A DNA stretch of 46,094 bases from UHGV virus genome UHGV-0027450. One strand, given 5' to 3'. The translations under genes and the position numbers were made by a program. Of the stretch, positions 26,364 to 43,220 are shown one piece after another. This DNA is from a virus. The notes below the pieces were generated by a model that saw only the letters and a list, made by a program, of their open reading frames with translations, did not search any database and was not told the DNA's origin. How positions within the stretch are numbered: the first letter of the stretch is position 1; each line of letters starts with the position of its first letter.

Positions 26364-26657
26364 ATGAAAATTAAAATGTTGATCGCATCCGTCCTGTTGG
26401 CTTCTTCTTTCTCTGCTGTAGCAACATCAGAGACGTGCAAGAATATTGGCGACATCGCATTGAATACGGCTGAAGTTCGAGATAACGGTGTTAGCAAAAA
26501 TCTTGCAGAGGTTGTGGTAAAAGGCTCAGCAAAAAACAACCCGCAGGCGGAAATTATTGGCCTTGCTATTGTAGAAATGGTTTATGCACGCAAGGATATG
26601 ACCAAAGAGCAATTGCGTGATGTAGCTGTTGCTTTGTGCGAAAAACAAGGGATGTAA
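26364..26657 (+). CDS. small secreted protein with a signal peptide; candidate superinfection-exclusion/receptor-blocking protein
   Basis: MKIKMLIASVLLASSFSAVA-TSETC has a signal peptidase I type cleavage site. Two Cys residues in the mature part. SD gaggtgag. Confidence 0.6.
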   Translation: MKIKMLIASVLLASSFSAVATSETCKNIGDIALNTAEVRDNGVSKNLAEVVVKGSAKNNPQAEIIGLAIVEMVYARKDMTKEQLRDVAVALCEKQGM

Positions 26658-26666
26658 GGTTCCCCT

Positions 26667-26810
26667 ATGAACGAACAAACAAAAGCAGACCTGATTTTCT
26701 ACACTGAACTGTATGTTGATGCAGGTTACGATTATGAAGAAGCAGAGCGTATGGCTAAAGACTTGCTTCGTGTTATTGGTGTTATTTTTGATGAGGATAA
26801 GGTGATATGA
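26667..26810 (+). CDS. hypothetical protein (47 aa)
   Basis: Translates MNEQTKADLIFYTELYVDAGYDYEEAERMAKDLLRVIGVIFDEDKVI. ATGA-coupled to the next gene. Not in the track (<60 aa). Confidence 0.35.
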   Translation: MNEQTKADLIFYTELYVDAGYDYEEAERMAKDLLRVIGVIFDEDKVI

Positions 26811-27139
26811 AAAATTATGGGGACATGAGTGATTCACAAATAGCGCAAAAGGTTTTCTTTTTTGTGAGTGGCAATCTTTGCCCAAACGGAGGATTGGCTC
26901 ATATCAGTTCAGATGGGTTCTTCTTTTTTGATGACAAAAACATTAAGAGGAAGTTTGACCCATGCAACAACCCATCTGATGCGTGGCCTATTATAGTTGA
27001 TAATGAGATAAGCATAAATCGTTGGGAGATATCAGATGACTGGCGAGCAGACCGTTTTGGTCATTTTGATACTGGGGATGACAAACCACTCCGCGCCGCC
27101 ATGATTGTTTTCATGAAAATGAATGAGGATAAATTATGA
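26807..27139 (+). CDS. DUF2591-like phage protein
   Basis: 110 aa. The motif FDPCNNPSDAWPIIV resembles the DUF2591 core. Confidence 0.5.
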   Translation: MKNYGDMSDSQIAQKVFFFVSGNLCPNGGLAHISSDGFFFFDDKNIKRKFDPCNNPSDAWPIIVDNEISINRWEISDDWRADRFGHFDTGDDKPLRAAMIVFMKMNEDKL

Positions 27140-27336
27140 GCAAGTGGATTAAGTGTAGTGAGCGGATGCCGGAAGAAGGTGAGATGGTTCTCACGGCGTT
27201 TCGTGGCGTCGTTAGAACTGCTATATGCAAAACCGTAGATGATATTGGCGCTAAAATATTTGTTAGCGAATTAGACCGCTGTCACGGAATTCCAGCTACC
27301 CACTGGGCTAATGCACCAGAACCACCACAAGAATAA
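27136..27336 (+). CDS. DUF551 protein
   Basis: The N-terminus MSKWIKCSERMPEEGEMVL and C-terminal PEPP match the DUF551 signature WIxCsDRLPE. Confidence 0.65.
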   Translation: MSKWIKCSERMPEEGEMVLTAFRGVVRTAICKTVDDIGAKIFVSELDRCHGIPATHWANAPEPPQE

Positions 27337-27367: not shown

Positions 27368-28083
27368 CAGGATACGGTGCACGCCGTGCTGATAATAATT
27401 TCCGGGTCAGTAGACGAATCCGTTACCGTGACGGTATACACACCAGCGGTAGGGCTTGCCAGTGTTGCGCCTGACTCACTGCCGACAACCACACCATCTT
27501 TGCGCCACACGTAGGTGTAAGGAGCAACGCCACCTTCAACAGCAACGGTCAACGGGCTGCCAGTGCTGCCAGTTGATGGCAGGTCGGTAGTGAATGCCAG
27601 AGGTTCAAGGCTTTCGACGGTAACACTGTCAGAGTCATACACCTTAAACTCAAGGCTGCCGGTTACGATGTCGTTAGTGCCGCCTTCGTAACTGATGCTG
27701 GTGATGTTGCAGTACGCGGTAACGATAGTCGCACCAGTCACCTGACGCACCCACAGGGAAGGTTGGCGGCGACCATTCATTTCAGTGGTGTAAATCTCAA
27801 CCAGACGATGGAAACCAAATTCATCGCTCGGGTCATTCTTGCGGATTTCAACCTCTGCGCTGATGGTCATATCAGAGCTGGTAACGAGAGTGGAAACAAA
27901 ACCGCCAGCGGTATCCGCTTCTGACGTAGTGGTCTGTGGCGAGTAGTCAACGCCTTTACTGGTGGTTGAACCTAAATATTTCCAGTCTTCCGCGTCAGGA
28001 ACTGCGTCGCCGCACCCTTCAGCAAGGAACAGTCGGGTCATGCGACCGACCAGAACGCCTTTATCATTTGCACAAATAGCCAT
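27367..28083 (-). CDS. major tail protein with C-terminal Ig-like (Big_2-type) domain
   Basis: 238 aa. SD ggaga. The C-terminus LTVAVEGGVAPYTYVWRKDGVVVG...GVYTVTVTD is Ig-like. Sits in the V position of the tail operon. Confidence 0.75.
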   Translation of the reverse strand: MAICANDKGVLVGRMTRLFLAEGCGDAVPDAEDWKYLGSTTSKGVDYSPQTTTSEADTAGGFVSTLVTSSDMTISAEVEIRKNDPSDEFGFHRLVEIYTTEMNGRRQPSLWVRQVTGATIVTAYCNITSISYEGGTNDIVTGSLEFKVYDSDSVTVESLEPLAFTTDLPSTGSTGSPLTVAVEGGVAPYTYVWRKDGVVVGSESGATLASPTAGVYTVTVTDSSTDPEIIISTACTVS

Positions 28084-28116
28084 TTCGATCTCCGAATTGT
28101 GTTAGCTGCTAACGTG

Positions 28117-28125
28117 GTGATTATA
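28117..28125 (-). promoter_or_regulatory. extended -10 promoter (TGATATAAT) for the major tail gene
   Basis: Read on the minus strand: cctgTGATATAATcacc, 35 nt upstream of the ATG at 28083. The same element occurs at the 26282 cassette. Confidence 0.4.
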
Positions 28126-28134
28126 TCACAGGTG

Positions 28135-28163
28135 TTGACAGTGATTATTTTGTGGTGTAGATT
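28135..28163 (+). promoter_or_regulatory. sigma70-type promoter, TTGACA-17-TAGATT, driving the ncRNA-tRNA transcript
   Basis: TTGACA(28135-28140)-gtgattattttgtggtg-TAGATT(28158-28163). Paralogous to the 26300 promoter. Confidence 0.55.
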
Positions 28164-28169
28164 GTATTT

Positions 28170-28790
28170 AAGATAGTTTTCGTGAGCGACTTTGCGGACT
28201 TTTTATAAACTGACCACAAAGATAAATGCAAACGATGATGTTGTTCTGATGGCGGCGTAATAGCCTGTAAGTCAGCAAGGTCTTCCGATTCCTTGTAAAC
28301 AAATTCGGCGCAGTGGCCCGCTGTGATTAATAATGGGCACCTACCAATGAGAGCATTGTGATTGATCGTCGTTCTTGCGCGCAAAGTATGCTCGAAGACA
28401 GTGCTCTCTTTAGTGGGTAACAACGGGCATGTCGCCTTAGTAAATCCCGCACAGGTGCAGCGAATAATCCGGTAATGTCGTTGCCGTAAGCCACACGAAA
28501 CGTGGCACACAACAGGTAAGAGCATTGAATGTTGACTGGCTTAGCGTACCAAATCCAACATTGTTGCAGCAGTGCTCTTTCAGTTGTGGTGAATGCGCAG
28601 GCTGATGCGCTATAAAAATGCGGCGAAGCCAGTACGTAAACCCGTGCCGTTTCGCACCTAAGCCGGAGATCAGCGCCGGCCACCACAACACTTAATATCC
28701 AGCGTTATCGCAATCATATGTAGGGGTATGTATGGGTTACGGGGCTGGATATTAAGAAAGCACGCTGGCAATGCTTAAACCAGCACTTAT
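28170..28790 (+). ncRNA. about 620-nt ORF-free, hairpin-rich transcribed leader; candidate large structured ncRNA co-transcribed with the tRNA
   Basis: No plus-strand ORF of 60 aa or more. The minus-strand ORFs overlap each other in different frames and have junk composition. Many local stems are present: gccacacgaaacgtggc, gcgcaggctgatgcgc, ccggagatcagcgccgg, gtgccgtttcgcac, and a 13-bp stem cttaatatccagc/gctggatattaag. The region is bounded by a promoter and a tRNA plus terminator. Confidence 0.4.
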
Positions 28791-28867
28791 GGACGCGTAG
28801 CTTAATTGGTTAAAGCAACCGACTCATAATCGGCTGATTGAAGGTTCAAATCCGTCCGTGTCCACCA
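28791..28867 (+). tRNA. tRNA with anticodon CAU (Met elongator-type or Ile2/lysidine), CCA encoded
   Basis: Acceptor stem ggacgcg/cgtgtcc (one G-U pair), D-stem gctt/aagc, anticodon loop ctCATaa, T-loop ttcaaat. One mismatch each in the anticodon and T stems. Confidence 0.8.
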
Positions 28868-28871
28868 TATT

Positions 28872-28901
28872 AAAAGCCGCTTCATGCGGCTTTATTTATT
28901 T
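28872..28901. terminator. intrinsic terminator after the tRNA
   Basis: aaaagccgc-ttcat-gcggcttt followed by atttatttc. Confidence 0.65.
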
Positions 28902-29270
28902 CACAACCCGCAAAAGCAACTCATGCACAGGCCGCTTCTCTTCTGTTAGCATCGGCCTTCCAAGTGGCGCTTGCAACTGGATATAGTTAACGCATGAGTC
29001 AATCGGATGGGTTTTGATGTATTCGATAATCTCCAGTGCCTTCGCATCAACATCCTGAACGTTATATTGCCCTTGTTTCCCAACAACATACAGCGAGAAA
29101 TAGAAATCACCGCCGAGGCCATCCATCACCTGCGTGCCACCATTGGATTGCAAAACAATAAACTGCTCGTTGCCATCTCCGGTGTCATTCCAGAACTGCA
29201 ACTGCGAAGTCCATCCATCGTACAATCCGGCATCCTGAAGATATGCATCAACAAGCTCAAGCATATTCAT
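28896..29270 (-). CDS. neck/tail completion protein (putative tail terminator)
   Basis: 124 aa. Last gene of the connector set, before the major tail gene. TAATG-coupled to the upstream gene. Confidence 0.5.
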   Translation of the reverse strand: MNMLELVDAYLQDAGLYDGWTSQLQFWNDTGDGNEQFIVLQSNGGTQVMDGLGGDFYFSLYVVGKQGQYNVQDVDAKALEIIEYIKTHPIDSCVNYIQLQAPLGRPMLTEEKRPVHELLLRVVK

Positions 29271-42950: not shown

Positions 42951-43220
42951 ATGACGCAGCGCGAAGTGTACCAGTTATTTAGCAAATGGTTCGATTCCGT
43001 TGGTTTTGTCGGCATGACTGATATGGAAAAGGACTGGATTTGGCTTGGGTTCTCTGTGGGCTATTGTCACGACAATAACAAAGCCATGCTAGCAGCACTC
43101 CAGCAACTACTGGAAATCTACGACGACCAATCAGGAAAAGTCTGGACAACATCAAGCAAGCGTCGCGCTCTGGATAATGCGCGCGAGGCGGTTAATAAGG
43201 CGTTGGGAGGAACAAAATGA
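42951..43220 (+). CDS. hypothetical protein (89 aa)
   Basis: ATG 42951 with SD gaggcagg. Confidence 0.45.
   Translation: MTQREVYQLFSKWFDSVGFVGMTDMEKDWIWLGFSVGYCHDNNKAMLAALQQLLEIYDDQSGKVWTTSSKRRALDNAREAVNKALGGTK

Follow-up and report, generated by a model that had tools for sequence, protein, structure and literature searches.

The window, as the complete 46,094-nucleotide (nt) stretch UHGV-0027450 is called here, is a 46-kb genome of a siphophage of Escherichia coli and Salmonella, with relatives that include the BASEL phages Bas77-81, STGO-35-1 (a Salmonella phage of the genus Caminolopintovirus), swi2 and Akira. The neck genes and the major tail gene are minus-strand genes, and a plus-strand RNA unit separates them. 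It opens with a sigma-70 promoter (TTGACA-17-TAGATT, 28135-28163, plus strand; inferred start at about 28170-28171) and runs into a transfer RNA (tRNA) gene with anticodon CAU (28791-28867, plus strand; called by ARAGORN and by Rfam at 63 bits) and an intrinsic terminator (28873-28901, plus strand; a hairpin at 28873-28893, then a T tract). The longest plus-strand open reading frame (ORF) in 28164-28790 has 37 amino acids (aa). A sequence-only reading of this DNA had proposed a structured non-coding transcription unit of this kind, with the same promoter, about 620 nt free of plus-strand ORFs of 60 aa or more, and the tRNA and terminator at its end; all of this is borne out. The single 620-nt RNA then envisaged is not: only 28171-28340 (plus strand), here termed B1, is common to all relatives, and the remainder is mosaic. 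B1 is a conserved module with a tag reading frame of the transfer-messenger RNA (tmRNA) type, and it is the main subject of this report.

A sensitive search with 28171-28333 as the query recovered B1 from 708 of about 50,700 phage records, in very different families and almost never annotated. Carriers are HK620 and other P22-like phages (between pR'/qut and the late terminator), P1 and D6 (after dmt), the Ackermannviridae phages Cba120, PhaxI and IME250 (Kuttervirus included), the Felix O1-like phages VpaE1 and Moogle (inside a tRNA cluster), the N4-like phage SP-058, Klebsiella podophages, a Drexlerviridae phage of Cronobacter and a Chaseviridae phage of Erwinia. At least six unrelated phage families are represented, with tRNA neighbours or without them (HK620, PJ16, Bas79 and KpV2811 have none), and SP-058 and the loci L048 and L102 keep B1 alone, without the downstream units. 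Among complete E. coli genomes, 592 of 5426 (11%) carry B1, with 150 places on chromosomes and 485 on plasmids. One chromosomal copy was examined and has the Q antiterminator gene on one side and the holin gene on the other; the plasmid matches cover positions 12-90 of the query, as does the match in P1, and 29 of the 30 E. coli matches listed have no annotated feature. In the window, PJ16 (TTGACA-17-TATTGT), KpV2811 and VpaE1 (both TTGACA-17-TATAGT), the motif UAGUUUUCGU follows at 6-11 nt the end of a sigma-70 promoter, of three different sequences in all, and this fixes the strand and the approximate 5' end of the RNA.

Three of these carriers have features of their own. In Escherichia phage PJ16 (Nonanavirus, 58 kb), a 356-nt stretch (L003, 2501-2855; also found in Sashavirus BDX09P1) matches 28171-28526 with 93.5% identity and belongs to a cassette with its own promoter and terminator, set between the major capsid and neck genes; the match suggests that the RNA cassette was transferred laterally not long ago. 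In HK620 (L007, 1233-1940) and in a prophage of E. coli E2865 (L135), the tag unit occupies the late-operon leader between pR'/qut and the late terminator, and lysogens of such lambdoid (P22-like) phages may carry it constitutively in a long '6S-like' terminated transcript. SP-058 (NC_021772; L011, 300-972) has four annotated tRNA genes that neither ARAGORN nor Rfam finds, one of which overlaps an annotated coding sequence (CDS).

The centre of B1 is laid out like the message part of tmRNA. An A-rich linker (28207-28227, plus strand) ends in GAUAAAU, which places U(-5) and A(-4) ahead of a resume-like GCA codon and matches U85 and A86 of E. coli tmRNA. The frame that follows (28228-28260, plus strand), GCA AAC GAT GAT GTT GTT CTG ATG GCG GCG TAA, reads ANDDVVLMAA*, compared with ANDENYALAA in E. 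coli. Two Rfam models, those for permuted and for beta-proteobacterial tmRNA, match 28137-28309 below threshold (E-values of 6.5e-4 and 7.7e-4; 29.7 against a threshold of 47 for RF04321, 19.7 against 84 for RF01850), and both align the frame as AUAAAU GCA AAC ... UAA. In Moogle, ARAGORN reads the homologous tag ANDNVFLAVA. The loci collected hold 25 distinct nucleotide versions of the tag, all of which keep the ten codons and the stop, with synonymous changes among them: Ala10 is GCC, GCT or GCG, Leu7 is CTG or TTG, and the stop is TAA, TGA or TAG. Judged by this computed pattern, with the consensus A-N-[DE]-[DENT]-x-[YFMV]-L-[AMV]-[AV]-A, the frame is under constraint of the protein-coding type. 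AUG and Shine-Dalgarno sequences are lacking from the tag frame in every member, and most members have an in-frame UAG eight codons upstream, where the window has UAU. An Ala resume codon, its U-A determinant and a short, degron-like frame ending in Ala are thus found together, with neither start codon nor Shine-Dalgarno sequence. The +1 frame (ATG CAA ACG..., MQTMMLF*) was considered as a leader peptide and rejected, its start codon being absent in Cba120 and its changes non-conservative.

The C-termini of the phage tags differ from those of the hosts. They end L-M-A-A, L-A-V-A, L-A-A-A or M-V-A-A, about half of them in A-V-A, whereas the tags of all 117 sampled host species end x-[LIV]-A-A and none ends like the phage tags. 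Chains tagged from the phage frames would end AANDDVVLMAA for the window, AANEEMYLAVA for HK620, AANDDLMMVAA for P1 and AANDNVFLAVA for Felix O1. The SspB-binding part of the determinants that Flynn et al. are said to have defined in 2001, AAN[DE]..[FY], is retained in the phage tags. In a screen of ssrA-like degrons, the terminal Ala-Ala was called 'critical' (bioRxiv 10.1101/2024.01.29.576913); the A-V-A tags lack it and may therefore be poor ClpXP signals.

The fold of B1 was tested in silico on an alignment of 28 distinct B1 sequences, with two controls: partners slid by 1-3 columns, which takes account of phylogeny, and 500 shuffles. Over 26 pairs, 93.2% of positions are paired, against 32-46% with slid partners; double compensatory changes occur in half of the pairs (13/26), and the observed values were reached by none of the 500 shuffles, a control that ignores phylogeny. 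A helix-5-like hairpin (28246-28275, plus strand) holds the stop codon in its loop, its outer stem being 99% paired, with one pair that is GC in 17 sequences and AU in 11. Pseudoknot 2 (28276-28308, plus strand) joins the hairpin 28276-80/28291-95 to a pairing of loop bases 28285-88 with 28305-08; it is 98% paired and has compensatory changes at three plus two pairs. Pseudoknot 3 (28309-28338, plus strand) is built from 28309-14/28320-25 and 28316-19/28335-38 around the invariant loop AUUAAUAAU, and the window itself has a compensated pair in it, G28313-C28321. The stop codon in the helix 5 loop is followed by pseudoknots, as in tmRNA, and with helix 5 and the pseudoknots supported B1 has the architecture of the tmRNA message half. 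Covariation in homologues, which the sequence-only reading had recommended examining, is strong for the helices of this first unit and for helix A further downstream; the minimum free energy z-score of 28171-28790, by contrast, is just -2.5.

Ahead of the tag frame, the 5' arm of B1 (28174-28206, plus strand) is antisense to nt 67-106 of host tmRNA according to blastn, Smith-Waterman alignment and RNAcofold. Against the minus strand of E. coli K-12 ssrA, blastn aligns 28174-28205 as the reverse complement of tmRNA nt 68-106. In tag codons 3-6, ACGAAAACUA is matched by UAGUUUUCGU of the arm; across the resume codon (bases -3 to +2), GUCGC is matched by GCGAC; CCGCAAA pairs with UUUGCGG; and UAAAAAG, in the 3' half of pseudoknot 1, pairs with CUUUUUA. 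As a whole the target runs from that half of pseudoknot 1, through the frame-setting bases upstream of the resume codon, to this codon and tag codons 1-6. It is the single-stranded message region of tmRNA and is accessible.

The Smith-Waterman score of the arm in the window is 36. None of 5000 dinucleotide shuffles scored as high for the window, P1, Cba120, L042 or L030, and 1-18 of 5000 did so for SP-058, HK620, VpaE1 and Moogle; a sense-strand control against ssrA stayed at background. The same region of ssrA (57-106) is targeted by nine of ten divergent arms, with alignments starting at nt 57, 68 or 81. Felix-type arms have a different sequence and pair within an overlapping stretch of it (nt 81-106), and indels among arms fall in predicted internal loops. 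The arm scores 36 against the host and 18 against its own RNA, with perfect runs of 10 nt and 5 nt, respectively, and its 10-mer matches the host codons GAC GAA AAC UA(C), which are missing from the phage tags. RNAcofold predicts 30 intermolecular pairs between 28174-28206 and tmRNA 67-106, in a joint fold 13 kcal/mol more favourable than the two RNAs folded separately. Across 117 species of Enterobacterales and neighbouring orders (about 25 enteric genera), the target is nearly invariant, a divergent type being the Yersinia-type ANDSQYESAALAA, and this near-invariance explains why the arm is conserved across phages of many genera. The complementarity computed here is therefore significant, conserved and directed to an accessible region, and it is very likely that B1 targets host tmRNA. 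Neither the tmRNA-like tag frame at 28228-28260 nor the antisense stretch at 28174-28206 had figured in the sequence-only reading.

B1 is the sole module with significant similarity to ssrA. Short blastn matches of the downstream parts (the insert 28341-28507, helix A, 28583-28695 and the hairpins), in sense or antisense, are all at shuffle background, and these parts were rejected as ssrA-derived. Two further docking sites were likewise discarded: at 28305-14/ssrA 40-51 the phage bases covary for their own pseudoknot and the complementarity is not kept, and the host site for the pseudoknot 3 loop (UGAUUAA/ssrA 236-242) is conserved in few genera only.

The other half of a tmRNA is missing. 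A tRNA-like domain (TLD) with a 7-base-pair (bp) acceptor stem, G3:U70, a T arm and CCA is absent, and B1 accordingly fails the tmRNA family on its defining feature. With its thresholds at default or 90%, ARAGORN calls no tmRNA in the window; at 80% it returned 15 junk calls scattered over coding sequence. A strict T-arm scan found none near the locus and one chance site at 42985. At gathering score, the Rfam comparison proposed by the sequence-only reading did recover the tRNA(CAU), which stands alone in the window; no other family, and none for B1, reached that score in the window and 13 related loci.

Two-piece tmRNAs have their coding and acceptor parts on separate molecules, joined by base pairs. 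On balance it seems probable, taking the locus and its first module together, that 28171-28901 is a non-coding operon of exchangeable structured units driven by host RNA polymerase, and that B1 is a tmRNA-derived RNA without a TLD, which docks on the tmRNA of the host, whose tag template it would mask or replace. We infer that in vivo the arm would anneal to the single-stranded message region of host tmRNA and mask the host resume codon and tag. The phage frame begins 22 nt past the predicted duplex and the host resume codon (G90) lies 21 nt past stem 1 of pseudoknot 1, a similarity of spacing that suggests that the phage frame is placed to be read instead of the host's. Stalled ribosomes could then be supplied with the phage frame by the charged TLD of the host and SmpB, the two RNAs acting in trans like a two-piece tmRNA whose acceptor piece comes from the host, and rescued chains would receive a phage tag ending L-[AM]-[AV]-A in place of the host A-L-A-A, with possible consequences for their proteolysis. 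The minimum effect would be a block of host tagging. Actual template replacement, in which host Ala-tmRNA-SmpB decodes the phage tag instead of ANDENYALAA, is put forward tentatively, at rather less than an even chance.

Several observations weigh against docking and template replacement. We know of no experimental precedent for a template supplied in trans with an open ring. An intramolecular pseudoknot-1-like pairing (GUUUU/GAAAC with CUUUG/CAAAG; 87% paired, nearly invariant) could also occupy the arm. The arm subtype of L050 and L095 is weakly complementary (270/5000 shuffles), L050 matching nt 96-106 only. RNAduplex energies separate weakly from shuffles (z of -4.9, with 1 in 1000 about as low); since RNAduplex allows large loops it discriminates poorly, and it was replaced by alignment scores compared with shuffles. 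The target is invariant in all known hosts, which makes host-specific covariation impossible. Finally, Felix O1-like phages and Kuttervirus have tRNA-like elements near B1 that might serve instead of host tmRNA.

The main rival explanation takes B1 as a pure antisense inhibitor or sponge of host tmRNA, whose tag is never decoded. Trans-translation would be stopped either sterically or because RNase III cuts the interrupted duplex of about 30 bp, and the tag-like part would be merely a tmRNA mimic, for example for binding of S1, SmpB or RNase R, or for stability. It draws on the same complementarity and suits the lack of a TLD, and it needs fewer assumptions than a template swap, as an antisense block involves no unprecedented step. 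What it leaves unexplained is the constraint on the tag, with its constant length, synonymous third positions, three different stop codons and replacements of the D/E and F/Y/M kind, together with the retained U(-5)A(-4). We therefore regard inhibition without decoding as rather unlikely.

Alternatively, B1 could be the coding piece of a multi-piece phage tmRNA whose tRNA-like piece lies elsewhere in the phage. Candidates for that piece are a permuted T-arm/acceptor element in Felix O1-like phages, a CCA-ending element in Kuttervirus and the unit 28583-28689 of the window. ARAGORN calls a permuted tmRNA in Moogle, a call repeated for Moogle and Felix O1 (PMC4319497, PMC4392139), and a T arm of the form GAAGGUUCGA(U/G)UCCUUC occurs near B1 in two unrelated families, together with a covarying acceptor stem. 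No such element has G3:U70, however, VpaE1 is without CCA, and in Felix-like phages three tRNA genes and a promoter lie between the element and B1. In the window there is neither a canonical T arm nor an ARAGORN tmRNA at 90%. The unit 28583-28689 offers a possible 7-bp stem at 28585-91/28681-87, with U3-A70 and no CCA after it in the window, and with GCCA/ACCA after it in HK620 and L132; it was rejected as a TLD because it has no G3:U70, has a non-canonical 9-nt 'T loop', is absent in many B1 phages (SP-058, L048 and L102 among them, which have B1 alone) and yields no Rfam tRNA match at E<=10. The arm directed against the host would also go unexplained, and a phage-encoded acceptor piece is accordingly improbable.

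The T-arm elements themselves lie at 680-745 of L013, 655-715 of L010, about 1379 of L099 and about 1185 of L109 in Felix-like phages, and at 1400-1490 of L009 in Cba120. In the Felix-like phages the T arm stands about 510 nt upstream of the tag unit and is followed by a covarying 7-bp acceptor-like hairpin (ACCCUUC-GCCAAACA-GAAGGGU in Moogle, ACUCGGC-AGAU-GUCGAGU in VpaE1), the arrangement of a permuted tRNA-like element. The Cba120 element lies about 250 nt downstream, is not permuted, has no D arm and ends C-CCA. G3:U70 is found in none of these Felix-like and Cba120 elements.

A functionless origin has little to recommend it. On this account, B1 is a decaying fragment of captured ssrA held in a passive leader or spacer of a phage tRNA operon; tRNA genes do adjoin it in many phages and the region is a mosaic recombination hot spot, yet its presence in at least six unrelated families, its own promoters, the compensatory changes and the intact tag are unlike a decaying fragment and make the account very improbable. 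Least probable of all is that the tract is one large RNA of the GOLLD or ROOL type, the kinship suggested by the sequence-only reading, for which tRNA adjacency and ORF-free length speak, or that it holds minus-strand protein genes such as the 'hypothetical protein' CDSs annotated in Bas79, PJ16, KFSST1 and Bas81: neither RNA family is among the Rfam matches to 27900-29100 even at E<=10, only 170 of the 620 nt are conserved family-wide, and the three overlapping minus-strand ORFs (126, 119 and 84 aa), which the sequence-only reading had rightly doubted, find no relatives in Pfam or PHROG, are divided up differently from one GenBank record to the next and do not keep their frame in homologues (1-nt indels in PJ16, STGO-35-1 and Bas79), the covariation following the plus-strand helices.

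Among known systems, B1 stands closest to bacterial tmRNA (SsrA; RF00023, with two-piece or permuted forms RF01849-51 and RF04321). It shares the GCA resume codon with U(-5)A(-4), a 10-residue tag of the A-N-D-E type with a small hydrophobic end, the stop codon in the helix 5 loop and the downstream pseudoknots. Unlike bacterial tmRNA, it has no acceptor stem, T arm, G3:U70 or CCA and stays below threshold in Rfam; an arm complementary to host tmRNA appears to take the place of pseudoknot 1 and helix 2, and its tags end L-[AM]-[AV]-A rather than x-[LIV]-A-A. A tmRNA census of 2014 (Hudson et al., PMC4131195) found phage ssrA only in mycobacteriophages (the Bxz1 group) and Bacillus phage G, and none in enterobacterial phages; it also described a TLD-only RNA in mycobacteriophage DS6A, proposed to inhibit host trans-translation. 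B1 resembles these as a phage-borne gene derived from tmRNA, and DS6A shows that a partial tmRNA can be kept. The tmRNAs of the Bxz1 group and phage G are complete, however, and that of DS6A is the opposite half, whereas B1 is the message half with an antisense arm.

For Moogle and Felix O1, an 'ssrA' called by ARAGORN is recorded in the genome notes on Moogle and Mushroom, with no analysis (PMC4319497, PMC4392139). The tag reported there, ANDNVFLAVA, is that of the Felix-type homologue of B1, and the gene called is 749 nt long and contains three tRNA genes and a promoter; the notes miss the stand-alone tag unit in many phage families and the anti-tmRNA arm. B1 is also like the trans-encoded base-pairing RNAs and anti-sRNAs (directed against small RNAs) of phages and prophages, which likewise have promoters of their own, match a host RNA over short interrupted stretches and are structured in the 3' part. 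It is unlike them in that its target is a stable housekeeping RNA of translation and in that the antisense is fused to a surrogate of the sequence it would mask. With GOLLD and ROOL it has in common that it is phage-borne, tRNA-adjacent and ORF-free; it differs in being modular and mosaic, and has no sequence or structure match to them. Full-text searches of open-access papers found no description of a TLD-less tag unit or an anti-tmRNA arm, although an earlier one may exist elsewhere. Some IMG/VR matches, with tags such as ANDERFLMAA, belong to another family, that of ordinary two-piece-type tmRNA coding pieces with the 5' end GGGGCUGA, and were set aside. They are apparent 5' coding parts of ordinary tmRNAs on contigs L024, L052, L063, L117, L020, L068, L062 and L104, with GGGGCUGA...UUCGAC at the 5' end and the tags ANDERFLMAA, ANDNAFLMAA and ANESVYRLAA, and they could be host flanks or genuine phage tmRNAs.

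If docking on host tmRNA is confirmed, it would amount to a widespread viral takeover of bacterial ribosome rescue, which many enterobacterial phages may block or re-programme. With template replacement, the fate of every rescued nascent chain would be re-programmed by the phage, and in lysogens of the HK620 or P1 type this could be constitutive; the E. coli places of B1 include Q-to-holin late leaders of lambdoid prophages as well as P1-like plasmids. Unexplained ORF-free tracts beside phage tRNA genes would gain a function, many 'hypothetical protein' annotations over the region would be corrected, and the question of why some phages depend on tmRNA or interfere with it would become testable. 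Whether a tmRNA template can come in trans would also be settled, with a bearing on resume-codon selection and on a programmable tool for C-terminal tagging. B1 is carried by candidates for phage therapy, namely BASEL phages, Felix O1-like phages and Kuttervirus.

Downstream of B1 the unit is a patchwork, and the other guess of the sequence-only reading, a processed leader yielding several small RNAs, fits this modular build. No relative covers more than 74% of the stretch, and the conserved collinear blocks (28172-28340, 28504-28528, 28569-28612 and 28657-28692) are separated by variable inserts. The first optional insert (28341-28507, plus strand; 167 nt) is absent from STGO-35-1, ZCEC08, KFSST1 and HK620 and has 93.5% identity in the unrelated Nonanavirus PJ16. 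It contains a hairpin at 28349-58/28399-408 and another at 28490-28506 with the loop ACGAAAC. The latter, GCCAC-ACGAAAC-GUGGC, is found in the long variant only and its stem covaries in L042 and L032; its conserved loop is similar to ACGAAAAC of the host tag and, allowing for one bulge, complementary to GUUUUCGU of the arm. The hairpin may be a self-masking element.

Helix A follows (28508-28588, plus strand), in which CACAAC-A-GG-U-AAGAGCAUU pairs with AGUGCUCUU-U-CA-GUUGUG around a variable insert (28508-26/28571-88). Its 11 distinct stems covary, with 8-9 of 9 positions paired. It contains the long-range pairing that the sequence-only reading had reported across 28531-28595; the pairing is real and those coordinates are wrong, AAGAGCA/TGCTCTT lying at 28518-28524/28573-28579 with the AATGTTG/CAACATT pair (28528-28534/28556-28562) nested inside it. 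Next comes a conserved unit (28583-28689, plus strand) bounded by GUUGUGGUG/CACCACAAC, with hairpins at 28595-28610 and 28662-28680 and changes that are only G-U-compatible. Before the tRNA, the segment 28691-28784 (plus strand), 98% identical in KFSST1, forms a 13-bp hairpin (28691-703/28744-56) and a small one (28764-84). The downstream units are bounded by CACAAC ... GUUGUG(GUG) ... CAC(CAC)AAC, the A/B units occurring twice in the window (28341-28692), and other phages have tandem arrays of similar units (L097, L051, L006 and L008), some with inserts that contain T-arm-like hairpins. They may be processing stems or further small RNAs.

The tract between the neck and tail genes is an exchange hot spot: in relatives it contains different tRNA genes (Met, Ile, or Ser with Arg), an HNH endonuclease gene, or nothing. 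KFSST1 (L005, 2269-2748) has an HNH endonuclease gene with tRNA-Met and tRNA-Arg; Bas81 (L006, 2426-2595) has tRNA-Ser and tRNA-Arg, and Bas79 no tRNA. In ZCEC08 (L004, 2063-2139), HC6, 6947 and HC8A, the same tRNA gene has the anticodon AAU (called tRNA-Ile), a single-base switch from CAU. Outside the RNA, the neighbouring major tail gene has an extended -10 element on the minus strand, TGATATAAT, which is kept in relatives; the sequence-only reading had noticed it and placed it 3 nt off, at 28117-28125 instead of 28120-28128. A second plus-strand island interrupts the minus-strand structural operon at 26364-27336, just past the tail gene; relatives have the small ORFs of this island annotated as superinfection immunity or 'moron' genes.

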